Shown here: one piece after another, positions 4,121 through 57,322 of the stretch
Layout of the letters: every line of letters starts with the position of its first letter
Numbering within the stretch: the first letter of the stretch is position 1
Source: Jacunavirus JC01
Taxonomy: Duplodnaviria; Heunggongvirae; Uroviricota; Caudoviricetes; Casjensviridae
Virus record (IMG/VR): IMGVR_UViG_2974716774_000001
Location: 1 to 61,736 of that record
Length of the DNA stretch: 61,736 bases
Reading direction: 5' to 3' (one strand)
Made by a program: the position numbers and the translations under genes
The notes under the pieces: model-generated
The model's input: the letters and a program-made list of their open reading frames with translations, nothing else
What the model was told of the DNA's origin: nothing
The model's database searches: none

Positions 4121-5461
4121 ATGCCCGCCAGATCCTTTCTTCTCCGCCTCATGGATGAATTTGGAAACGGCGGGCATTCTATTTTTGCGCCGTCCGGTTC
4201 GGCGATGTGGCTTTACTGTAGCGGAAGCCTTATCGCGAACCTGCTGGAAGATGACGACGGCTCGTACGAGGCTGCCGAAGGAACGGTGGCGCACGAGCTG
4301 GGAGAGCAGTGGCTGAAGTCTGGCGTTAAGCCCGACCATCGGCTCGGTGAGGTCGTCAGCGTCACGGAAGGCGAAGGCAAGCCGGTTTATGAAGTGCCTA
4401 TCGACGAAGTGATGCTGGACTTCGTTGAAGAGTACGTGCTGTGGTGTGAATGGCTCGAAGGCGACCACTTCGTCGAGCAGCGAGTCTATTTTACCGAGCT
4501 GATGCCGTACGCCAATCAGGATGAGATTGAGGAAGACCCGCTGGCGGTGCCGGTGGATTTCGTACCTCAGGGCGGTACCGCCGACCACGTTTGCTGCATG
4601 ATGGGTCTGATGATTATCACGGACTTCAAATACGGCAAGGGGATCTGGGTCGACGCGGTGGGCAACACCCAGGCGATGCTGTATGCGCTGGGATTCTTTT
4701 ACAAATGGGACTGGAAATACCATTTCGAAAAGATAGTTATCCGCATCGCTCAGCCGCGCCTGCATAACTGGGGCGAGTGGGAAATAACGCGCGACGAGCT
4801 ACTGGATTTTGCCGAGTTCGTCCGCGAGCGCGCTGCGAAGGCGTGGCAGATTAACGCGCCGCGCCGGGTGAGTGCCAAAGGCTGTCAGTGGTGCAAAGCG
4901 AAAGACAGTTGCGTCGCGAACGCCGTGGCGCTGGAAAACCTCGTCTACCGCGATTTTGATTTGCTCGCGGAAGAACTGACGGAGCACCATATGTCGATGA
5001 TGAAAGAGAAGCTGCGCGAAGAGTACAAGATGCACCTCGCCAAAGTGGCCGTGCTGGACGAGGCGGACATGGTGCGCATTCTGGAATTTCGTCGGCCCGT
5101 TGAGCAGTGGTTTAAAGCCATCAACGCAAAACTGGAGGCCGCGGCTAACGCTGGCCACACCATTCCCGGCAAGAAGCTGGTGGATGGAAAATCAAATCGC
5201 GTTTTCCGTAACCAGAAAGCGGCGATTGATCATCTGCTGTTCCTCGGCCTTGAGATGGAGGATATCGTCACCGAAGAGGTTATCTCTCCGGCTCAGGCAG
5301 AGGAAAAGTTAAGGAAGGTGGCAAAGCTGGACAGGAAGAGCATCGACGTTGCGCTTCGCAACTACGTGTTCAAGCCTCCCGGAAAACCCACACTTGTCAA
5401 TGACGACGACCCAAGAGTCGCCCTGGGAGACCACGACGAAGGTGCCTGGGACGATGAGTAA
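4121..5461 (+). CDS. DUF2800-like PD-(D/E)XK nuclease (Cas4/RecB-like fold with C-terminal Cys cluster)
   Basis: 446-aa ORF; N-terminal HSIFAPSGSAMWLYCSGS pattern and C-terminal CQWCKAKDSC cluster; typical partner of DUF2815 and PolA in phage replication modules. Confidence 0.6.
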   Translation: MPARSFLLRLMDEFGNGGHSIFAPSGSAMWLYCSGSLIANLLEDDDGSYEAAEGTVAHELGEQWLKSGVKPDHRLGEVVSVTEGEGKPVYEVPIDEVMLDFVEEYVLWCEWLEGDHFVEQRVYFTELMPYANQDEIEEDPLAVPVDFVPQGGTADHVCCMMGLMIITDFKYGKGIWVDAVGNTQAMLYALGFFYKWDWKYHFEKIVIRIAQPRLHNWGEWEITRDELLDFAEFVRERAAKAWQINAPRRVSAKGCQWCKAKDSCVANAVALENLVYRDFDLLAEELTEHHMSMMKEKLREEYKMHLAKVAVLDEADMVRILEFRRPVEQWFKAINAKLEAAANAGHTIPGKKLVDGKSNRVFRNQKAAIDHLLFLGLEMEDIVTEEVISPAQAEEKLRKVAKLDRKSIDVALRNYVFKPPGKPTLVNDDDPRVALGDHDEGAWDDE

Positions 5462-42433: not shown

Positions 42434-42916
42434 TCAGCTGGCGTCAACACTCTCTTTCCTGAAGCACATCCAGTGGGTGTCGACACGTTTCCCTGACCGA
42501 TGGCCAAATAACGGAGCCGCATCCACGAGAGTGAGGATTTCGCGTACGCGGTGGCTGGTGTCGTTCCACTTGAAGATTAGCGTTCCACCCGGCCGGAGAA
42601 CGCGGAAGGCTTCGCTAAAACCTTTCCTCAGGTCTTCCCGCCAGGTGTCTTTGTTGAGCACGCCGTATTTGTGGCGCAGCAAGCTGCGCGGCCCAGCGCG
42701 GGATACGTGCGGTGGATCGAAAACGACCATCTCGAAAGTCTCATCGGCGAAAGGCAGCTGGCGGAAATCTGCCTGGACGTCAGGGCGAACTTCGATGGTT
42801 CGGTCGGTCATCTGAAAAGTGCCCACACGGATGTCGCAGAAAACAACGCGCGGGTCTTTCCTGTCGAACCAGAAAACTCGGCTGCCACAGCACATGTCAA
42901 GCACGGTTTTATCCAT
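42434..42916 (-). CDS. Small DNA methyltransferase (N6-adenine or N4-cytosine type)
   Basis: 160-aa ORF; DPPH motif (VVFDPPHV) and Gly-rich SAM-binding-like LDMCCGSRVF. Confidence 0.55.
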   Translation of the reverse strand: MDKTVLDMCCGSRVFWFDRKDPRVVFCDIRVGTFQMTDRTIEVRPDVQADFRQLPFADETFEMVVFDPPHVSRAGPRSLLRHKYGVLNKDTWREDLRKGFSEAFRVLRPGGTLIFKWNDTSHRVREILTLVDAAPLFGHRSGKRVDTHWMCFRKESVDAS

Positions 42917-45313: not shown

Positions 45314-46021
45314 TTACAGATCCTCCCACCTTCTGAACCACGCTTCCCGATCGAAATGCTTCTTCGCCGCCAGTGGCATCCCGATCTCCATCAGCTCTTC
45401 CCGGCGGACGTACTCTTCTGGCGCGCGGCTGGTGCTGAGGCCATCGAAGATAATCAGCGACGCGCCGAAGCCTGCGGTAGAGGCATCAGAAGACATGGCG
45501 TCTGGTCTGTACCAGCGAGGCAGGTCGAAAGCGATACGCCCTTTGATGTGGATAATCTTCGAGCATTCGCCGTCCGGCCACCAGCTCTCCGACGTCGCCG
45601 ACTTCACCAGCCAGAAAGATGGCGTGCCTTTCCGGTGCTCTTCGTACGCCTTCTTCATGATGTGCTGCATACCGGTGACGTGGGGCGCCCGACGGCCGCG
45701 CCCGGCGCGCTTGATGCTGTAAGGTGGATTGCCGAAGCATTTGACCGGCTCAGCGTCATCCGCACCCGCCAGCTCGGCACCTTTGCGCAGCGCTGCGCTC
45801 CAGTCCTGCGTCAGCGCGTTATCATCTGCCGTGAAGAACACCGGGCACTTCGCATTGGGGCCGTCACTGAACAGGTCGACGACGAACGGGCCATACAGCT
45901 CATCCAGCGCCAGGTAGAGCCAGTCCGGCGTACACCACTGGTCGCCTATCTCGTTCGGCAGGTGGGTCTGCTGGGCCTGCAGTTGCTGCAGAGCACGCAC
46001 GTACTCATTGCTCATCGGCAT
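45314..46021 (-). CDS. DNA N6-adenine methyltransferase (phage Dam-like)
   Basis: 235-aa ORF; NPPY catalytic motif (CFGNPPYS) and W-C-T-P-D-W segment. Confidence 0.65.
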   Translation of the reverse strand: MPMSNEYVRALQQLQAQQTHLPNEIGDQWCTPDWLYLALDELYGPFVVDLFSDGPNAKCPVFFTADDNALTQDWSAALRKGAELAGADDAEPVKCFGNPPYSIKRAGRGRRAPHVTGMQHIMKKAYEEHRKGTPSFWLVKSATSESWWPDGECSKIIHIKGRIAFDLPRWYRPDAMSSDASTAGFGASLIIFDGLSTSRAPEEYVRREELMEIGMPLAAKKHFDREAWFRRWEDL

Positions 46022-46490
46022 CCCCTTTGAGATACGGCGGGATGAATCCGTGTACCTGGTCTCCCTCGCGCAGCAGGCGGATCATCATTGCAAGCACGTC
46101 AACCATTTCCGACTCAACCCGGTGCCAGCTGCCTCGTCCTTCGAGATAATGGACGCATTCCTTTGTGACCTCGCCAGCCTCTTCCCCGAATTTGGTCAGC
46201 ACATAGTTGGGCTGGGGGAATTTCTGCATGGCTGCCTCAGCGCGCTCCATCGCGTCGTCCACCAGCTTGAGGAAGAGCTGCTGGCCTCTGTCCTTGTTGC
46301 TGGACAGCGCATGGAACTCATCGGTGTGGATGAAATAGTGCTTGATGGTTCCCGCGATATTAGGCGTGTGACGGCTGGTGTCGTGTCCAGCGTGGAAAGC
46401 CCAGCTGAAAAAGTCCAGCATCTGCTCGGTGGTAAAAGTCAGCGTCTTGCCTTTCTGCTCGCTGATAATTTCGTCAAATGTCTTGCTCAT
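46005..46490 (-). CDS. MazG-like nucleotide pyrophosphohydrolase (putative)
   Basis: About 161 aa; acidic motif pattern FGEEAGEVTKE...ESEMVDVLAMM resembles the EExxE...E..D metal-binding signature. Confidence 0.4.
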   Translation of the reverse strand: MSKTFDEIISEQKGKTLTFTTEQMLDFFSWAFHAGHDTSRHTPNIAGTIKHYFIHTDEFHALSSNKDRGQQLFLKLVDDAMERAEAAMQKFPQPNYVLTKFGEEAGEVTKECVHYLEGRGSWHRVESEMVDVLAMMIRLLREGDQVHGFIPPYLKGDADEQ

Positions 46491-46864
46491 TTGTATCCCC
46501 ATGATTTAACAATGTGAATCACCCGGCGGCACTGCTTGATGCTGAAGTGTCCAATGTGGCAGCGGCCCACGGAAATGCGCATGGCGCGGGCCAGCATCCT
46601 GTATGCAACGTCGCGGGAGTGCCTGCCATTGCGCCACACCTGGTCGAACAGGCGGTGCGCTTCGCTCCTGACGGCGCGCAGGTTTTTATTGGCCAGCGTT
46701 CCCATTGGGGCTTCTGTTCCCCTGTGGCAGCCGACATAGGCGTCACATGGCACGCAACGCCAGAACTTCTTGTCGGCGAGGTCTTCGCGGTGCGGATACA
46801 GGTCTGTGCCGCTGGCCAGCTCCGCAGGTTTTCCGCAGTATGTACATTTAACTTGAGATGGCAT
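46487..46864 (-). CDS. Zinc-finger protein (phage-associated CxxC...CxxC)
   Basis: 125-aa ORF; Cys pairs CTYCGKP and CVPCDAYVGCH. Confidence 0.45.
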   Translation of the reverse strand: MPSQVKCTYCGKPAELASGTDLYPHREDLADKKFWRCVPCDAYVGCHRGTEAPMGTLANKNLRAVRSEAHRLFDQVWRNGRHSRDVAYRMLARAMRISVGRCHIGHFSIKQCRRVIHIVKSWGYK

Positions 46865-46890: not shown

Positions 46891-47931
46891 CTATAAATCG
46901 CTTCGTTCAGTCTCATAAGCTGCGATAACAGTTGCGCTGACGAACCGGGCAGCGATTTGAGGTACGATGGCGTTACCATATCCTTTGAGTAGCCCCACGC
47001 GGCCGGGTACCCCATGAGCCAGCGGGAATGTTCCGGGTTCAACGGGCCTGAAGCATCCATCCCGGCAGAAGAGCCAGTCAGCACTTCCCCAGTCTCCGTG
47101 ATCCGCACTGGGCAATCCGGCATAACCAGCTGCGCGGCAACGTCCAGTCTGTCCACTGACAGTTTGCCGTTGCGTATCCGTCCTCCCTGATAGCCGCCCT
47201 TGTGATCCGTCGCGCTCGATGTTGGCCATATCGCCAGCTTCGCCTCCCCGCCCAGCTTCAGGATTTTCCGGCCCGCCGATGTGCTGTAGTCGCTGCCCTT
47301 CGCATCGTTCGCTATCGCCGTATGCCAGCTGGTCATCTTCGCCTGCTGCGCCAGCGAGCTGCCCGTCATGTTGGCCGTGATGCCCGACCAACCGCGCCGC
47401 CCGTCCGAGTGACTCGGTGTCGTCCAGGCGAAAGGCCGCGAAAAATAATCGGTCGCGTTTGTGCGGAGCGCCGACGCCTGCAGCTGGCAGTACATGCGCT
47501 GCGCAGGCGTAACCTTCCTCTTCCAGCTCAATGAGTAAAGCGTCAAGCCAGTGGTCTTTTTTAACTGCCGCTGCAACCTGCTCGCCGAAGAGCATTGGAG
47601 GACGACACTCTGCGATGAGATCGAGAAGGGCCGGAGCCAAGTGACGTGAATCTCTTGCCCCGAGGCCTGCTCCAGCCACGCTGAAAGGCTGGCACGGAGG
47701 ACTACCCGTCCACAGCGGGAGATCGTCCGGGAGCCCGGCGAGTCGCAGGGCAAGCGGCCATCCGGCGATGCCTGCGAAGAAGTGGCACTGGGTGAAGCCA
47801 CGGAGGTCTTGTGGTCTGACATCTAAAATGCTCCGCGTGTCTACGATGCCCATCGGGATAAGCCCGGCGTCAATGAGAAGCCGCAGCCTTTCAGCTGCGA
47901 CCGGATCGTACTCGTTATAGTAATTCATCAC
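46891..47931 (-). CDS. DNA cytosine-5 methyltransferase, reading frame apparently interrupted by two frameshifts
   Basis: Frame A (46891-47931) carries motif I (FFAGIAGW), motif IV (GSPPCQPFSVAG), motif VIII (HKRDRLFF) and C-terminal motif X (GNAIVPQIAARF); the target-recognition region and motif IX (RWLMGYP) are in the overlapping +1 frame (ORF 46848-47822). Confidence 0.55.
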   Translation of the reverse strand: MMNYYNEYDPVAAERLRLLIDAGLIPMGIVDTRSILDVRPQDLRGFTQCHFFAGIAGWPLALRLAGLPDDLPLWTGSPPCQPFSVAGAGLGARDSRHLAPALLDLIAECRPPMLFGEQVAAAVKKDHWLDALLIELEEEGYACAAHVLPAAGVGAPHKRDRLFFAAFRLDDTESLGRAARLVGHHGQHDGQLAGAAGEDDQLAYGDSERCEGQRLQHIGGPENPEAGRGGEAGDMANIERDGSQGRLSGRTDTQRQTVSGQTGRCRAAGYAGLPSADHGDWGSADWLFCRDGCFRPVEPGTFPLAHGVPGRVGLLKGYGNAIVPQIAARFVSATVIAAYETERSDL

Positions 47932-50385: not shown

Positions 50386-50603
50386 GATACCCTCTTGATC
50401 CGCGTGCCGGTCTTGCCGTAAATCTCGTCGCGCTCGACGAACCGGAAAGCCAGCCTCAGGTTGAGTTTATAGCCCAGCTTGCGCAGGTACGTGCAGTGCT
50501 TGGGCAGGACGTTCTCCAGGAAGAACGAGTCGCCGATGGCCAGTCGCGCCAGCAGCTCCTCGTGCTTCTGCCTGGTCTCAGGGGAGATGTCAGATATCGT
50601 CAT
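50382..50603 (-). CDS. Hypothetical small protein
   Basis: About 73 aa from the ATG at 50603, overlapping the RdgC-like C-terminus by 14 nt. Confidence 0.4.
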   Translation of the reverse strand: MTISDISPETRQKHEELLARLAIGDSFFLENVLPKHCTYLRKLGYKLNLRLAFRFVERDEIYGKTGTRIKRVS

Positions 50604-51816
50604 CGTCGTCTTCGCTCTCTTCTTCGCCGAGATCCCACTCGTCATCCACCATGTCCTCTTCGCTTTCCGGCAGCGGCTCGCCGCCTTTCGCCTTAGCCTT
50701 CGATTCTTTGGCCACCGCGATATCGTCGCCGTCCGCGTAGTCCTCCAGCGCCGAGCGGTTAACGGTGACGCCGGTGCGATACATCGCGGTGCTGAAGGCA
50801 ACGATGGCGCGACGCATGACCCACAGCTCGCTCATCCACAGCTGGAAAGCATTGTCACCGCGATCATATTCCTGCCCGAAGTCCACGTCATCGCTCTCGG
50901 CGCTGGTGGAGAACGCTTTTACGTCGCCGTTGTGGTTCATCTTCGCCCAGATGTTCTCCATGCCAGGCAGATTGGACATGAAGCGGAACTCCATTTCCGT
51001 CGGGAAGAAGCCGGACGCCAGCAGATCGCGGTAGCGCGGCTCAGCCAGCTCGCCGTCTTTGACCGAGATGGTCTCTTTCTCATCGTTCACGAGTTTCAGG
51101 TGGCTGCCCAGCAGGAAAAGGTCTGCCACATCGGAGTGACGGAGCAGGATGCTGCGGAAGAAGCGCTGCATGGCGCCCTGGTCGACGTACGCGGGCACCG
51201 TAGGGAGCGAGCTGAACGCCTTGCGGATGAGCGCCGTGACATCTTCTGCTGCCTTCTGGCTGCCGGTGAAGACATACAGGTCAAGCCCGTCGATCATGAC
51301 GTAAATGCGGCTGCGGCGGATGGGCGCGGTGGTCAGCAGCTGCGCCGTCACCTCGTCTTTCAGGATGGCGTAGTCTTTGCGGTTCAGCTCGCGCTCTTCG
51401 CGTGCCTTCATCTCGGCGGCGCGCTCAAACAGCTTGTCGTTGATGGAGCTGGACGGCAGCACGCGCTCGCGCTTCTCGATGCACATTACCAGGGAATTGC
51501 ATTCGTGGATCTCGACGACCAGCGGCTGCACATATTTATCTTCGCCGTCTTCTTTACCCGCGTACATGTCTTCCGGCACCGCGTAGTGCGGAGGTACGAA
51601 GCCCCAGGTGCGCCACTGGCCGTGCGCCGGGTCTTTGGCCGGGTGCTCTTTCAGGCGGTCGTGGATGAGCTGAATGGCGGACTCGTGGTCGATTTCGCCT
51701 TCGTGCAGATCCAGAATGGTCAGCAGCGCCGCCGCCACGTCTTTGCCTTCGCGGACGTTCTCGGCGATCTTATCGAGGTAGTAGTGCTGGAACTTATCGA
51801 AGTGCTTCAGTTTCAT
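50590..51816 (-). CDS. Recombination-associated protein RdgC-like
   Basis: 408-aa ORF; AAEDVTALIRKAFSSLPTVP and NSLVMCIEKRERVLPSS match the RdgC pattern ([37 protein letters not shown]); acidic C-terminal tail EEESEDDDDDI. Confidence 0.6.
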   Translation of the reverse strand: MKLKHFDKFQHYYLDKIAENVREGKDVAAALLTILDLHEGEIDHESAIQLIHDRLKEHPAKDPAHGQWRTWGFVPPHYAVPEDMYAGKEDGEDKYVQPLVVEIHECNSLVMCIEKRERVLPSSSINDKLFERAAEMKAREERELNRKDYAILKDEVTAQLLTTAPIRRSRIYVMIDGLDLYVFTGSQKAAEDVTALIRKAFSSLPTVPAYVDQGAMQRFFRSILLRHSDVADLFLLGSHLKLVNDEKETISVKDGELAEPRYRDLLASGFFPTEMEFRFMSNLPGMENIWAKMNHNGDVKAFSTSAESDDVDFGQEYDRGDNAFQLWMSELWVMRRAIVAFSTAMYRTGVTVNRSALEDYADGDDIAVAKESKAKAKGGEPLPESEEDMVDDEWDLGEEESEDDDDDI

Positions 51817-53009: not shown

Positions 53010-53376
53010 CCCCTTTGGTCGGTAGTTCCACGCTGTAAAGCAGGCGGCTAAGGTCAGCCCGAGCATCCTTCACGCCGCGCACGTATTCTTTCAGGTACTG
53101 CTCGCCGTTCTTCTCGGCCTGCCCGTTGTACTGCGCCATCAGCTGCTCTTTGATGCTGGTGGACAGTGCCGTGTTCGCGCCGCCGCTGCGCACATGGCTG
53201 TCAAACACGGCATAGCGGCCCTGCAGGTAGGCGTTGATGGCCATCTGGCGGCGGAAGCGCGTGTGGTAGCGCCAGGTGTTGAACGCCATGTACACCAGCG
53301 GCGCGCAGATAAGCAGATTGCCGAACCACGCGATCGCGGTCAGCTCCGCCCGGTGCTGCAATATCCAGTCAAGCAT
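52990..53376 (-). CDS. Hypothetical membrane protein
   Basis: 128-aa ORF; N-terminal hydrophobic helix LTAIAWFGNLLICAPLVYMAF. Confidence 0.4.
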   Translation of the reverse strand: MLDWILQHRAELTAIAWFGNLLICAPLVYMAFNTWRYHTRFRRQMAINAYLQGRYAVFDSHVRSGGANTALSTSIKEQLMAQYNGQAEKNGEQYLKEYVRGVKDARADLSRLLYSVELPTKGDEDEQG

Positions 53377-54034
53377 CGTTGTCCTCCACCAGCTCGTAGA
53401 CGAGGAAGCCCGGAACTTCGGTGATGCGCATGGGCCGCGATTCGACCAGCGTTTTCAGCACCTCAGCCGTGTTGATGCGCAGCTCGGTCATGCCGTTGCC
53501 GATCATGATTTGACGAACCGTGGCTTCAAAGAAGGCGTTGAACTCTTCTCCGTGGCGCTCTTCCATCTTGTCCATCAGCGCACGAAGCAGTTCATTTTCG
53601 TCGAGCAGATCCCACTGCTTCTGGAGGCGCTCAACCTCGGCCTGCGCCTTCTCGCGGGTGTCGATGACGTCGCGACCGGCCAGCGATTCAAACTGAGCGG
53701 CGCTGGTGTCGGTTTCAGCCGCCTGCACAGGGGAATACTTAACCTCTTTTAAATCCTCCGCCATCTTGTCATAAGGCGCAGCAAATGCAGCGTACGAACC
53801 CGGCTGGCGGCCCTGCGGCGCCACGGTGGAGTTATAGGCATAGCCTGCCACCTTCGTGCCGTTAAGCAGCACGTTCAGGCGCGCCGCCACCGCGTCATAG
53901 AGCGACGGGTTGAGGTCTTTAATCCGCACTGCCACACCGCCGTTAAGCTCGGCGATAATGCTTTTGATCGGCGATACACCGTCAAATTTGTTAGCCACAG
54001 CCACGGCCAGGTTCATCAGTTCTTTCTGTTCCAT
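53369..54034 (-). CDS. Hypothetical protein
   Basis: About 221 aa from the ATG at 54034 preceded by RBS AAGGA. Confidence 0.45.
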   Translation of the reverse strand: MEQKELMNLAVAVANKFDGVSPIKSIIAELNGGVAVRIKDLNPSLYDAVAARLNVLLNGTKVAGYAYNSTVAPQGRQPGSYAAFAAPYDKMAEDLKEVKYSPVQAAETDTSAAQFESLAGRDVIDTREKAQAEVERLQKQWDLLDENELLRALMDKMEERHGEEFNAFFEATVRQIMIGNGMTELRINTAEVLKTLVESRPMRITEVPGFLVYELVEDNDA

Positions 54035-54044
54035 GTTGGTGTCC

Positions 54045-54581
54045 TTAAATCTTGTCACGGAGCCACTGGATCCCAGCGGACATGTATTTGACCTGATGAA
54101 TCGCATCATCGAGGGCGTTGTGGAATGTGCCTTCTCGTTCGAACTTCAACGGGTTTATGCCTGCCAGATCTACCGCCGTACGAACGTCGCGGATATTCCA
54201 GAATTTCCACGGTGTCGGAAGATGCAGCTGAGCGAACCACGCTTCCAGAATAGTGATGTCGAACACGGATCCGTTGCCCCAAACGAGGTCATTACCGTCC
54301 AGCCACTGAATGAATTTAAGGGCACTCTCGCGCGGGTTGTCGCTGCCATTAAACGCGTCCTGCTTAGCGGCGTCTGACTGTTTCTGCCACCATTCCAGGG
54401 TGTCGGGGTCAACGTGCCCGAAGGCGCGGGCATTTTCGTAGCCCATGCAGCAGTAGAACGTCTCACCGATCTCGCCCGTGTAGCGGTCGAAAGCCACGGC
54501 GCCGATGGACAGCACCGAACAGCCCGGGCTACGGCCGAGCGTCTCAATGTCGATCATTACGTCACGATGTTTCTTTTTCAC
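54045..54581 (-). CDS. DEDDh-type 3'-5' exonuclease (DnaQ-like)
   Basis: 178-aa ORF; Exo I IDIETLG, Exo III HNALDDA. Confidence 0.6.
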   Translation of the reverse strand: MKKKHRDVMIDIETLGRSPGCSVLSIGAVAFDRYTGEIGETFYCCMGYENARAFGHVDPDTLEWWQKQSDAAKQDAFNGSDNPRESALKFIQWLDGNDLVWGNGSVFDITILEAWFAQLHLPTPWKFWNIRDVRTAVDLAGINPLKFEREGTFHNALDDAIHQVKYMSAGIQWLRDKI

Positions 54582-55450
54582 CAGTCTTCTCCGAAAGGAT
54601 TACACTCTTCAGTGCAGTTACCCGGCGCATCTTCATACAACGGCCGGTAGTCATTATCGACTTCACTAAACGTCGCTATCAGGTCAGCGGCGCTACGGAA
54701 GCCCCGGTACATCTTGCGTGGCCCTTCGACCACATTTGGCCCGACGTCACCACAGCTTTTCTCCATTTCCGCCGCGGCGTGGAAGTATTCCGGATTGTCC
54801 TGGAAGGCCCGGAGCAGCTTCGCGTCAGACTTTTTAAAGCAGAAAACGCAGTTTCCGCAGTGCTCAGGTATCCCCAGGTCAAACGGCATAAACTCCCACC
54901 AGTCGAGCACATCTTCTTTCGTGGTTGGCCACCAGTGCGCCAGCGGGTACACCTTGTTTTGCCGGGTCTGGCGGTCAGGCTTTTTAGGCTTGATGCGCCG
55001 TGGTTCGTCAATGCGCATACCGACGGCTGTCAGGTATTCCCCTTTGGCCCAGCCCAGCGCCTCCCACAGATACCCGTGGATCGGTATCTCTTTCAGCTCC
55101 CGCGTGCAGTGCAGGTAGTTGGTGTTCGGTAGCCCATACTTCCGGCACATCTCGATGTAGGGCTCACCTTTGCGGCTGGCGGTCTCGTACGTCACTACCT
55201 TCCAGCCGGTGCGCACGCCTTTCTGCTCGTGCGTTATCGCCTCCACCCACACGGTATTGAAGCCCAGCTGAACGTCGCAGTTATGCACGAAGTCCAGCGT
55301 GGCCGGGTGCTCAAAGCCAGTGTTGGCGAAAAGCACTTTAATGTCGTACTCGTCTGACTTCTCCTGCAGCAGCCGGTACGTCATGTGCGCCGAGGTTCGG
55401 CCACCGGACATGGCGGCCACCAGCCGTGGTTTCATTTGTGATGCCCGCAC
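54578..55450 (-). CDS. PP-loop ATP pyrophosphatase superfamily protein (PAPS-reductase-like)
   Basis: 290-aa ORF; PP-loop-like AAMSGGRTSA near the N-terminus; cysteine pairs HCGNCVFC and NCTEEC. Confidence 0.55.
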   Translation of the reverse strand: MRASQMKPRLVAAMSGGRTSAHMTYRLLQEKSDEYDIKVLFANTGFEHPATLDFVHNCDVQLGFNTVWVEAITHEQKGVRTGWKVVTYETASRKGEPYIEMCRKYGLPNTNYLHCTRELKEIPIHGYLWEALGWAKGEYLTAVGMRIDEPRRIKPKKPDRQTRQNKVYPLAHWWPTTKEDVLDWWEFMPFDLGIPEHCGNCVFCFKKSDAKLLRAFQDNPEYFHAAAEMEKSCGDVGPNVVEGPRKMYRGFRSAADLIATFSEVDNDYRPLYEDAPGNCTEECNPFGEDW

Positions 55451-56208
55451 TTTGAACAGACCAGATAATCTTCCTGGTAGATGTCGGGACAGGAATGAGG
55501 AACCCAGTTGTGCTCACAGGGCTTCGTCTTTTCGCGGTCGATCCCGAGCGTCAGCGGGGCGATTTCATTCGGCATTATCTGGAAGTGGTTAGTCAGCGCG
55601 CCTGCGATGGCCATGCCTTCTTCCCGATCGATGCGTGTTTCGATGCGGGTCAGCAAGCCCTGCTGGAAGATGAATGAGGTTTCGCCCTGCACGTCGTCCA
55701 GCTGAATGACGCGAGGCATCTGATTGAGGTCGGGCAGCTTAAAGCTGGTGGTTTTTCCGCTGCCCTGCTGGCCGACACCGATGACGTCAGGACGGGATTT
55801 CCCCTGTTCCGGTGCGGCGGGCTTATATTGTCGATTCTCCATGCCGAGAAGCTTGAGTGCCTCATCGAAGAACATGATTTCCACCGAAAATCCCTCTGAC
55901 TCCAGTTTGTCGCGGGTTTTAGTGAGTTTTTCCTGACGTGCAACGTTCGTCAGAACCAGAAAGCGCCAGCCCAAAAGGGAGGTTTCGACCTGTTTGCCTG
56001 CAGCTCTGCACCGCGCAGCGAAAGAAGTCATGTTAATCAGATCCCGGAAATTTCCATCCCAGCTGTCGAGGACGCTTTTGCATTTAAGCTTCTCCTTAAG
56101 CGCATAGGCGTAGGTGGTTTTTCCGCAGCCCTGCGGGCCGACAACGATGACGAACGTCGGTCGGTCGCTGGTGACGGGAGGGATGGTGCTGCCATTATGT
56201 CGAATCAT
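55432..56208 (-). CDS. P-loop NTPase with two Walker-A motifs and C-terminal Cys/His zinc-ribbon-like tail
   Basis: 258-aa ORF; VGPQGCGKTT and VGQQGSGKTT; VIQLDD Walker-B-like; C-terminal CEHNWVPHSCP...CSKCGHH. Confidence 0.5.
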   Translation of the reverse strand: MIRHNGSTIPPVTSDRPTFVIVVGPQGCGKTTYAYALKEKLKCKSVLDSWDGNFRDLINMTSFAARCRAAGKQVETSLLGWRFLVLTNVARQEKLTKTRDKLESEGFSVEIMFFDEALKLLGMENRQYKPAAPEQGKSRPDVIGVGQQGSGKTTSFKLPDLNQMPRVIQLDDVQGETSFIFQQGLLTRIETRIDREEGMAIAGALTNHFQIMPNEIAPLTLGIDREKTKPCEHNWVPHSCPDIYQEDYLVCSKCGHHK

Positions 56209-56273: not shown

Positions 56274-56684
56274 TCAGGCCGTGCGCGTTACGATGACCTG
56301 CACGTATACCACGCCGCTCGGCGTGATGGTGGCGTTGGTCTCCATTGTGAAGTTACGGTTGTCGACGCTCTTCGCGTGACGGATGGACTGATTCAGCGAC
56401 TGGCGCAGCTGGCGCTTCCATTCGTTCATGTTCTGACGAACCTCGGCCAGCGTCATGTCGTCCGGCATTTTCAGGCTGCGCGAGTAGTTTCCGCCAGGCT
56501 TGAGAGACAGCAGGTTGGAGATGGCGCTGCCCGGGCGGCCGTTGCCCGGCAGGTCTACGTCCGGCTCGGCAGACAGCAGGGCTGCGGTGATAGCCTGCGC
56601 AGTAAGGCTGGTGGCTGTGTTGCCGCCGGTCGGCGCGTCCACATCATCAGGCAGATCCCATACGTCGTCGTGCTCGTTTGACAT
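56274..56684 (-). CDS. Hypothetical protein, first gene of the long leftward accessory operon
   Basis: About 137 aa from the ATG at 56684 preceded by RBS GGAG; the longer upstream ORF extension runs through the direct repeats and is rejected. Confidence 0.5.
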   Translation of the reverse strand: MSNEHDDVWDLPDDVDAPTGGNTATSLTAQAITAALLSAEPDVDLPGNGRPGSAISNLLSLKPGGNYSRSLKMPDDMTLAEVRQNMNEWKRQLRQSLNQSIRHAKSVDNRNFTMETNATITPSGVVYVQVIVTRTA

Positions 56685-56717: not shown

Positions 56718-56747
56718 AAAGATATAACTACACTTCGGATGTGTCAA
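56718..56747 (-). promoter_or_regulatory. Sigma70-type promoter with embedded dyad (family member) driving the leftward operon
   Basis: Minus strand TTGACA-CATCCGAAGTGTAG...TATATC about 30 nt upstream of the 56684 start. Confidence 0.45.
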
Positions 56748-56771
56748 ACTTTTTCTGGGCGCTCGGGGGCA

Positions 56772-57024
56772 GGCTGACTTTCTGAAGTAAGGCGGCGCGG
56801 CATGGCGTTCGTCACGGAAAACCGACAGCCGGGTAACTTTTTGAAGTAAGGAAACGCCGTGGCGCCGCGCGACAACCGGCTGACTTTTTGAAGTAAGGAA
56901 GTCATTCAAAAATTTTGGAAGCGAGCGACAGCCGGGTAACTTTTTGAAGTAAGCCGGGGATTTTCCTGAACAGCCGCAAAACCTCGTCGGCTCGATCGAC
57001 AGCCGGGTAACTTTTTGAAGTAAG
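56772..57024. repeat. Array of five direct repeats (core CTTTTTGAAGTAAG; long form CGACAGCCGGGTAACTTTTTGAAGTAAG)
   Basis: Copies at about 56772-56792 (degenerate), 56823-56850, 56873-56898 (degenerate), 56926-56953 and 56997-57024. Confidence 0.85.
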
Positions 57025-57293
57025 CCCCGCGGGCGGCGCGCCTCGCGCGTATATAAAGAGGGCCGTGGCGCCGGGCGGCCCAGGGTGGCGCCGAAAACGT
57101 GTGAAAATACGCGATTTTTGCTTTTTCTATGTGAATCAAGCACTTATCGAATTTTCAGCGCCCTGGGCGGCGTGGTTTTCTTGTGAATCAATGGCTTACG
57201 AGGTGGGCGGCGCGCCCTGGTGGGCCGGGCCGTTCTGGATTTCCATATAAACCAGGCATTTAGCGAATCTGTGAAAATTTTTGTAGAAAGTCT

Positions 57294-57322
57294 TTGACAC
57301 ACTCCGGGTGTATCACTACTAT
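57294..57322 (+). promoter_or_regulatory. Sigma70-type promoter with embedded dyad (family member) driving rightward genes
   Basis: TTGACA-CACTCCGGGTGTATCAC-TACTAT. Confidence 0.45.

Follow-up and report, generated by a model that had tools for sequence, protein, structure and literature searches.

The genome record of Cronobacter phage JC01 (Jacunavirus JC01, Casjensviridae; IMG/VR record IMGVR_UViG_2974716774_000001), whose full 61,736 nucleotides (nt) are called the window below, carries at positions 54045-56208 three adjacent genes for a mosaic P-loop protein, a PP-loop protein of the lambda NinC family and a DEDDh exonuclease. We consider it probable that these are three real, co-transcribed and functionally independent accessory genes, situated in a hypervariable cassette region after a DUF7609 gene of a Chi-like phage. 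The original prediction had proposed that the trio could form a joint modification or anti-restriction module; this did not hold up, as the genes occur apart from one another in close relatives and, but for one exonuclease near NinC, in 73 diverse viral loci, Dnd/Ssp partners were missing among the proteins scanned, and the P-loop domain looks kinase-like. NinC and the DexA-type exonuclease are members of known families, and the third gene encodes a rare, shuffled P-loop protein.

The paper on JC01 describes a Chi-like siphovirus, lists 50 of its 76 open reading frames (ORFs) as hypothetical and leaves the three genes under study undiscussed (PMC9759504). The nearest nucleotide relative in a phage collection search is Salmonella phage BAU.Micro_SLP-22 (Jacunavirus, Casjensviridae; hereafter SLP-22), with 75% identity over 500 base pairs of the PP-loop gene. 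The operon comprises the following features (aa, amino acids).

56719-56747, minus strand: sigma-70-like promoter candidate, TTGACA-17-TATCTT (consensus scan, pattern match only), heading the leftward operon
56274-56684, minus strand: DUF7609 gene, 136 aa (PF24582 at 5.6e-32), operon gene 1
55432-56208, minus strand: mosaic P-loop protein gene, 258 aa (ORF and homologues)
54578-55435, minus strand: NinC-family PP-loop gene, 285 aa from the deposited ATG at 55435 (290 aa from a GTG, ORF 54578-55450)
55391-55408, minus strand: segment of the NinC gene coding for the PP-loop SGGRTS
54045-54581, minus strand: DEDDh 3'-5' exonuclease gene, 178 aa (Rv2179c / T4 DexA family)
53369-54109, minus strand: downstream conserved gene, 246 aa from its first ATG (homologues in clade relatives)

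The three overlapping leftward ORFs were borne out at their exact coordinates, and each has homologues (PF16473 for the exonuclease, PF01507 and phrog_424 for the PP-loop protein, four proteins for the P-loop protein). The motifs quoted in the original prediction (VGPQGCGKTT, VGQQGSGKTT, a C-terminal Cys/His cluster and AAMSGGRTSA) are all present, and its calls of a protein like 3'-phosphoadenosine 5'-phosphosulfate (PAPS) reductase with a PP-loop, a DEDDh exonuclease and a P-loop protein hold. The junctions between the three ORFs overlap, as ATGA and then GTGA. Since one promoter-like site lies upstream and no convincing minus-strand terminator was found between it and position 54045, the DUF7609 gene and the three genes are predicted to form a single transcription unit, and we take the trio to be co-transcribed on this sequence evidence. 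The longest ORF of the 246-aa gene overlaps the exonuclease gene by 65 nt; a start at the ATG at 54034, which has AAGGA upstream and lies just past the exonuclease stop, appears more likely and would give a protein of ~221 aa. No family match to the 246-aa protein was found in Pfam, NCBIfam or PADLOC.

The independence of the genes is seen in the relatives of JC01, whose contigs are given L numbers here and whose P-loop-type proteins are given P numbers. The DUF7609 gene is a conserved anchor upstream of variable cassettes and occupies the same place in all related contigs. The genes that follow it are listed below, where P stands for the P-loop mini-domain, X for the X domain and Zn for the zinc ribbon of the mosaic protein.

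JC01: P-X-Zn, NinC, exonuclease, 246-aa gene
L094: P-X-Zn, HAD phosphatase, NinC, 246-aa homologue
L002-L005: P-X, NinC, 246-aa homologue ... HAD_PNKP ... RdgC
L095/L096: P-X, exonuclease, 246-aa homologue ... HAD_PNKP ... RdgC; NinC missing
L098: P-P', 246-aa homologue; NinC and exonuclease missing
L006: X-P-Zn, 107-aa gene, NinC
L009: X-Zn, NinC
SLP-22 / L007: X-Zn, HAD, small gene, NinC
L008: four other genes including X, then NinC

Nine relatives (L002-L009, L094) have NinC and no exonuclease, and homologues of the 246-aa gene come after NinC or after the exonuclease in all clade relatives. Because relatives carry the genes in almost every combination and distant NinC loci lack the others, the trio does not behave as a module; the region after DUF7609 is a hypervariable early cassette region, and its genes are independent cassettes and not a three-component system. 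Among the genes of this region, SLP22_0066 (L001 6884-7387, in SLP-22) and the L007 gene at 4348-4833 are deposited as ‘polynucleotide kinase’; both have no P-loop and carry an N-terminal HAD motif, FISDLDDT. SLP22_0066 is homologous to the HAD_PNKP phosphatase-domain protein of L002 (E 1e-10), and by sequence its product appears to be of the phosphatase type and not a kinase.

The same lack of linkage extends to distant phages. We sampled 73 diverse viral NinC loci with a neighbourhood of ±6 kb; an exonuclease lies near NinC in 1 of the 73, and the P-loop protein, the 246-aa protein and DUF7609 occur in none. No fixed partner gene of NinC was found over these loci, and its immediate neighbours vary. 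Recurring nearby genes encode DnaB, C5 methyltransferase (11), DUF2800 PD-(D/E)XK nuclease, N6/N4 methyltransferase (10), PolA and NinG. Desulfurase, DndD/SspC and DndE/SspB partners were not detected by PADLOC in the 14 arm proteins scanned (which are not every ORF of the arm), and Dnd/Ssp partner genes are likewise missing around NinC in the relatives and the 73 loci. In type 4 of the bacteriophage exclusion (BREX) systems, the PAPS-reductase domain of BrxP is linked or fused to DUF4007 and accompanied by PglZ, BrxC and BrxL (PMC12839542); none of these components (DUF4007-linked PAPS reductase, PglZ, BrxC, BrxL) was matched in the PADLOC scans of these 14 proteins. The three methyltransferases that the original prediction placed in the same arm are real and lie 6-12 kb from the trio.

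42434-42916: methyltransferase gene (phrog_954)
45314-46021: Dam methyltransferase gene
46891-47931: C5 methyltransferase gene

Homology between the PP-loop protein and lambda NinC extends over the full length (35.5% identity, 96% coverage, E 1e-39; tblastn 5.8e-44), and the JC01 protein matches phrog_424 at 1.2e-50 and PF01507 at 4e-7. The two proteins are alike in length (285-290 aa) and share SGGRTS, (H/F)CT..LK, GNCxxC and a C-terminal CxxxC, whereas their settings differ: lambda ninC sits in the lambdoid nin region between ninB and ninD, and JC01 is a lytic Chi-like phage with a DUF7609-headed operon. Chi phage was reported earlier to have a NinC-like protein (PMC4342425), and lambda ninC is non-essential after removal of polar effects (PMC10695390). 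The family is large, with >7,700 proteins at E<1e-10. Across a 76-sequence alignment that includes lambda NinC, S10, G11, S15, C110, K115, G139, R141, D143, E144, R147, C274 and C278 are invariant and C196 and C199 near-invariant. All of the family motifs (the SGGRTS PP-loop, CT(R)ELK, G.R.DE..R, GNCxxC and the C-terminal CxxxC) are found in the JC01 protein, which ends in GNCTEECNPF where the family consensus is GCxESCExF. A homologue with 44% identity in Klebsiella phage KPN N137 (KPNN137_58; L011 3995-4744) is annotated ‘putative head morphogenesis protein’ and has no GNCxxC segment in the alignment.

The AlphaFold model of NinC is confident (predicted local distance difference test, pLDDT, 90.3) save for the last 13 residues, which hold C274 and C278, and SGGRTS (residues 10-15) follows strand 1. 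The structures nearest to the model are adenosine 5'-phosphosulfate (APS) reductase with [4Fe-4S], LarE-[4Fe-4S], TtuA, NcsA and PAPS reductases, and also TilS and GMP synthase. By its loop and the Rossmann-like alpha/beta core of the model, JC01 NinC is assigned to the PP-loop ATP pyrophosphatase superfamily, with the corresponding activity predicted. Its cysteine pattern is similar to that of APS reductase: one Cys precedes the R..K motif, a CxxC comes 86 residues on, and the flexible tail bears cysteines too. APS reductase has CC...CxxC as its cluster ligands and carries its catalytic Cys on the tail. We infer from motif position and fold neighbours that C110, C196 and C199 sit where APS reductases bind [4Fe-4S], which would make them a predicted cluster site.

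A role as the PAPS reductase CysH was considered and rejected. NinC is not a PAPS reductase because the true ATP-pyrophosphatase loop is kept, the C-terminal ECGLH motif is missing and the CysH score is far under the cutoff (NCBIfam PRK02090, 13.7 bits vs 154). Compared with APS reductase of P. aeruginosa (2goy) and CysH, NinC keeps the SGGxxS loop that CysH lacks, has HC for CC and has no ECGLH. Among the PADLOC defence models the closest is SspD (2.9e-14; residues 5-228 against model positions 2-202 of 277, a partial coverage), and this match lends some support to the proposed kinship to a phosphorothioation enzyme; the DndC model gave no match at E <= 0.1 in the same scan. SspD and DndC have the PP-loop domain in common with JC01 NinC, together with conserved cysteines compatible with an Fe-S site, but they have linked desulfurase, ATPase and DndE/SspB partners, whereas NinC is a lone gene across thousands of phages. 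A preprint states that a phage PAPS reductase promotes Dnd evasion, but this could not be traced to its source.

A direct search of the Protein Data Bank (PDB) with the NinC sequence gave no match. The family profile reaches one solved protein only, and weakly: chain C of PDB 21fy, ‘PptA’ (270 aa, E 0.0036), with the GNCxxC region included in the match. This chain has SCGAPS where NinC has its SGG PP-loop, and what PptA is was not found in the literature searched.

The mosaic P-loop protein, in contrast to the large NinC family, is rare: four homologues were found among 5.8 billion proteins, and 7 representatives at E<1e-10 among 1.84 billion. It consists of the following parts.

55837-56169, minus strand: P-loop mini-domain, aa 14-124 (alignments; AlphaFold2 pLDDT ~70-87)
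55561-55773, minus strand: X domain, aa 146-216 (homology to stand-alone proteins)
55435-55518, minus strand: zinc-ribbon-like Cys/His cluster, aa 231-258, CEHNW...C...CSKCG
56113-56152, minus strand: copy 1 of a 40-nt direct repeat, encoding the genuine Walker A, VIVVGPQGCGKTT (repeat search and codon comparison)
55747-55786, minus strand: copy 2 of the 40-nt direct repeat, encoding the second ‘Walker A’ at the P-loop/X junction, VIGVGQQGSGKTT (repeat search and codon comparison)

In the mini-domain the Walker A (GPQGCGKT) is conserved, and two further motifs, VLDxWxG and LVL, are invariant. The X domain has no family assignment; it is homologous to stand-alone proteins of 84-123 aa encoded upstream of NinC (SLP22_0067, 40% identity, 1e-17; also in L007, L008 and L009), and the zinc ribbon is common to P0001, P0128, SLP22_0067 and the L006 and L009 proteins and missing in P0002-P0004 and P0126. 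These parts are shuffled among relatives as P-X-Zn (JC01, P0001, P0128), P-X (P0002-P0004, P0126), X-P-Zn (L006), X-Zn alone (SLP22_0067, L007, L009) and two P-type domains in tandem (P0125, P0127).

The original prediction called this protein a double Walker-A NTPase. Both motifs are there; two nucleotide sites are not supported. The two copies of the repeat are 93% identical in nucleotides and use the same codon at every shared residue, and in a protein-level self-comparison the 13-aa Walker A patch alone aligns. Only the first Walker A is conserved among the homologues; the second is missing from every homologue examined across the junction (P0001-P0004, P0126, P0128), and P0001, the closest, has unrelated sequence of equal length where JC01 has copy 2. 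The second motif also falls in a stretch of the model with pLDDT ~30 and no domain. A tandem two-site P-loop NTPase was rejected on these grounds. The 40 nt that encode the second Walker A were copied recently from the first within the gene, probably as a gene-conversion patch at a domain junction, and the second motif most likely is not a working nucleotide site. P0125 (L098 3277-4104) and P0127 (L097 4001-4606) are distant relatives with two P-loop mini-domains in tandem, and both domains of P0127 keep the GxQGCGK(S/T) and DDW(D/N)G motifs. True mini-domain duplication therefore does occur in the P-loop family, unlike the 40-nt patch of JC01.

Structure prediction, one of the checks proposed originally, gave a confident model of NinC and, for the whole P-loop protein, a poor one (mean pLDDT 56) that is usable at residues 14-124 alone. 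Foldseek neighbours of this part, all weak (E 2e-3 to 4e-2), are APS kinase, adenylate and UMP/CMP kinases, T4 polynucleotide kinase and O-phosphoseryl-tRNA kinase (PSTK); DndD/SspC-type ATPases are absent among them. The mini-domain matches phrog_14685 at 1.4e-14, and its Pfam matches reach barely beyond the Walker A segment (AAA_22, 28.0 bits vs 27; Zeta_toxin, 26.7 vs 22.3; AAA_33 under cutoff). The modelled domain looks kinase-like. It resembles small P-loop kinases in its Walker A strand/helix unit, four-strand parallel core and Asp-containing strand after the P-loop, and differs from them in its length of ~110 aa, the lack of a lid or substrate domain and the fusion to an X domain and a zinc ribbon.

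The exonuclease matches PF16473 (Rv2179c-like) at 4.8e-49 (166.9 bits vs a cutoff of 27) and phrog_255 at 4e-59, and its DEDDh residues are intact (D11, E13, D108, H154, D159). The only solved sequence relative is 8KEL/8KEN (E 2e-6), of which 8KEL is the T4 DexA structure (PMC12153337). All five DEDDh residues are common to T4 DexA, M. tuberculosis Rv2179c and the JC01 protein, which is shorter than T4 DexA (178 vs 227 aa) and lacks some DexA loops. By sequence it belongs, as an intact DEDDh enzyme, to the Rv2179c / T4 DexA family, with 3'-5' activity predicted. A homologue was found in each of 851 phage records. In the database the top matches share 57-60% identity and come from unrelated phages, both 9NA/Sasha-like ones and phages of Klebsiella, and the closest relative (65% identity) occupies the same operon slot in L095/L096, which have no NinC.

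The chemistry that we infer for these proteins can be sketched as follows. NinC would use ATP to adenylate an oxygen of its substrate, a nucleic acid or a nucleotide, and would then substitute the adenylated oxygen, most likely with sulfur from a host cysteine desulfurase, acting alone; such a step would resemble the SspD/DndC step and the TtuA/LarE class. The DexA-type exonuclease may trim single-stranded nucleic acid 3' ends, in host-DNA scavenging or recombination, by analogy with T4 DexA.

Several joint functions were weighed against independent action. The cassette region could encode a split PNKP-like kit for end processing and repair, in which the P-loop protein is a 5'-kinase, the HAD protein of relatives a 3'-phosphatase and the exonuclease a trimming enzyme, mending RNA or DNA cut by defence nucleases. 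HAD_PNKP genes in the operon of relatives (L002, 9e-10; L095, L094, SLP-22 and L007 by homology), the presence of T4 polynucleotide kinase (1ly1) and PSTK among the P-loop fold neighbours, and the zinc ribbon fused to the P-loop protein are consistent with this. However, no HAD/PNKP phosphatase homologue was found in JC01 and no ligase was seen, the fold matches are weak (E >= 2e-3, query TM score ~0.25) on a model of low mean pLDDT, the P-loop protein has no sequence-level PNK match, and its domain has no recognisable lid or substrate-binding region; we regard this as unlikely, if the least so of the alternatives. It is very unlikely that the trio acts jointly as a DNA/nucleotide modification or anti-restriction module, with NinC inserting sulfur, the P-loop protein as a DndD/SspC-like partner and the exonuclease in processing. 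The SspD match, the conserved NinC cysteines and Fe-S-type fold neighbours, the tight gene overlaps behind a single promoter-like site, the P-loop/X gene directly before NinC in several relatives, and the DNA methyltransferases that recur near NinC genes and number three in this arm would all fit such a module. It is contradicted by L095/L096, which have the exonuclease but no NinC, by the nine relatives that have NinC but no exonuclease, and by L098, where the P-loop protein stands without NinC and exonuclease, as well as by the 1/73 and 0/73 counts in diverse loci. No DndA, DndD, DndE, SspB or SspC-like protein was seen among the 14 arm proteins scanned, and the ~110-aa P-loop domain is kinase-like and not an ABC/ORC-type ATPase. 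Lambda, which has NinC alone and is the standard restriction-digest substrate, is not known to carry phosphorothioate.

Less likely again is a nucleotide salvage pair, in which the exonuclease degrades host DNA to deoxynucleoside monophosphates, the P-loop protein is a small (deoxy)nucleoside monophosphate (NMP) kinase and NinC is unrelated. Scavenging of host DNA is a documented role of T4 DexA (PMC12153337), the P-loop fold neighbours include adenylate and UMP/CMP kinases, and there are weak PHROG matches to thymidylate kinase families (3e-4 and 2e-3); yet the two genes are not co-conserved beyond JC01 and L095/L096, the short P-loop domain leaves no room for an NMP-binding domain and a lid, and all matches span little beyond the Walker A region. 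Auxiliary sulfur metabolism, with an APS-kinase-like P-loop protein and a cysH-type PAPS reductase boosting host sulfate assimilation, is barely credible. The database name of the middle protein, ‘phosphoadenosine phosphosulfate reductase’, and the APS kinases among the P-loop fold neighbours would point that way, but the NinC loop is a canonical ATP-pyrophosphatase loop (SGGRTS), its GCxESCExF-type tail and low CysH score are not those of CysH, across phages it lies beside genes of replication, recombination and methylation and not beside sulfur genes, and the likeness of the P-loop protein to APS kinase is at the general-fold level only.

Some observations weigh against three wholly independent genes. 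Translational coupling and one promoter-like site would also suit a functional unit. In several lineages the gene for a P-loop/X protein immediately precedes NinC, and it is conceivable that X, NinC and the 246-aa protein act as partners in this clade specifically. An exonuclease-like gene lies 1.3 kb from NinC in L046, and in Klebsiella phage KPN N137 a 237-aa protein encoded two genes downstream of NinC is weakly exonuclease-like (E 1.5e-4). C5 (11/73) and N6/N4 (10/73) DNA methyltransferases recur by NinC, which fits a DNA-directed role; such genes share replication modules anyway. The Fe-S assignment of NinC is a prediction from motif position and fold neighbours, and an experimental function for any NinC, or for phage PAPS reductases in anti-defence, was not found in the literature searched. 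A distinctly unlikely alternative is that the NinC family consists of stand-alone [4Fe-4S] PP-loop thiolases that would place low-frequency, so far undetected sulfur or other modifications on phage DNA or host tRNA for counter-defence, needing host IscS only, and that would be tuned in the JC01 clade by the X-domain/zinc-ribbon and 246-aa proteins. Independent accessory genes remain the interpretation that we prefer.

Further features were observed around the trio. An RdgC-domain protein (408 aa, 50590-51816, minus strand; PF04381 at 5.6e-26) is conserved in all relatives at the distal operon end, and a DUF3268 zinc-finger protein (46487-46864, minus strand) is encoded between the Dam and C5 methyltransferase genes. 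Upstream, at 56719-56756 and 57285-57322, a leftward and a rightward sigma-70-like match (both TTGACA, 17-nt spacer) fall in the two arms of a 28-nt inverted repeat; because both promoter matches fall inside the arms, the divergent operons seem, from the sequence, to share promoter/operator sequence. Between these two divergent promoter-like sites, 56764-57027 holds five ~31-nt direct repeats at a spacing of 47-71 nt, whose core, CCGGGTAACTTTTTGAAGTAAG, occurs in 4 copies at <=2 mismatches (chance expectation none). About 40 nt spanning one of these repeats is 93-95% identical to unannotated DNA in many Salmonella Chi-like phages. The direct repeats may be iterons or regulator binding sites.

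These results bear on how such genes are read in phage genomes and viromes. The label ‘PAPS reductase / cysH’ on thousands of phage genes is misleading, in that they are NinC-type, with a canonical ATP-pyrophosphatase loop and no CysH catalytic motif, and it is probably a mistake to score them in viromes as auxiliary genes of sulfur metabolism. The cysteine pattern of NinC and its APS-reductase/TtuA/LarE-like fold suggest concrete mutants and assays for the old question of lambda NinC; lambda is an equally good system for such work, to which the JC01 locus adds little leverage. In Chi-like phages the stretch that follows DUF7609 clearly exemplifies cassette and domain shuffling, down to a 40-nt copy that mimics a second nucleotide site.

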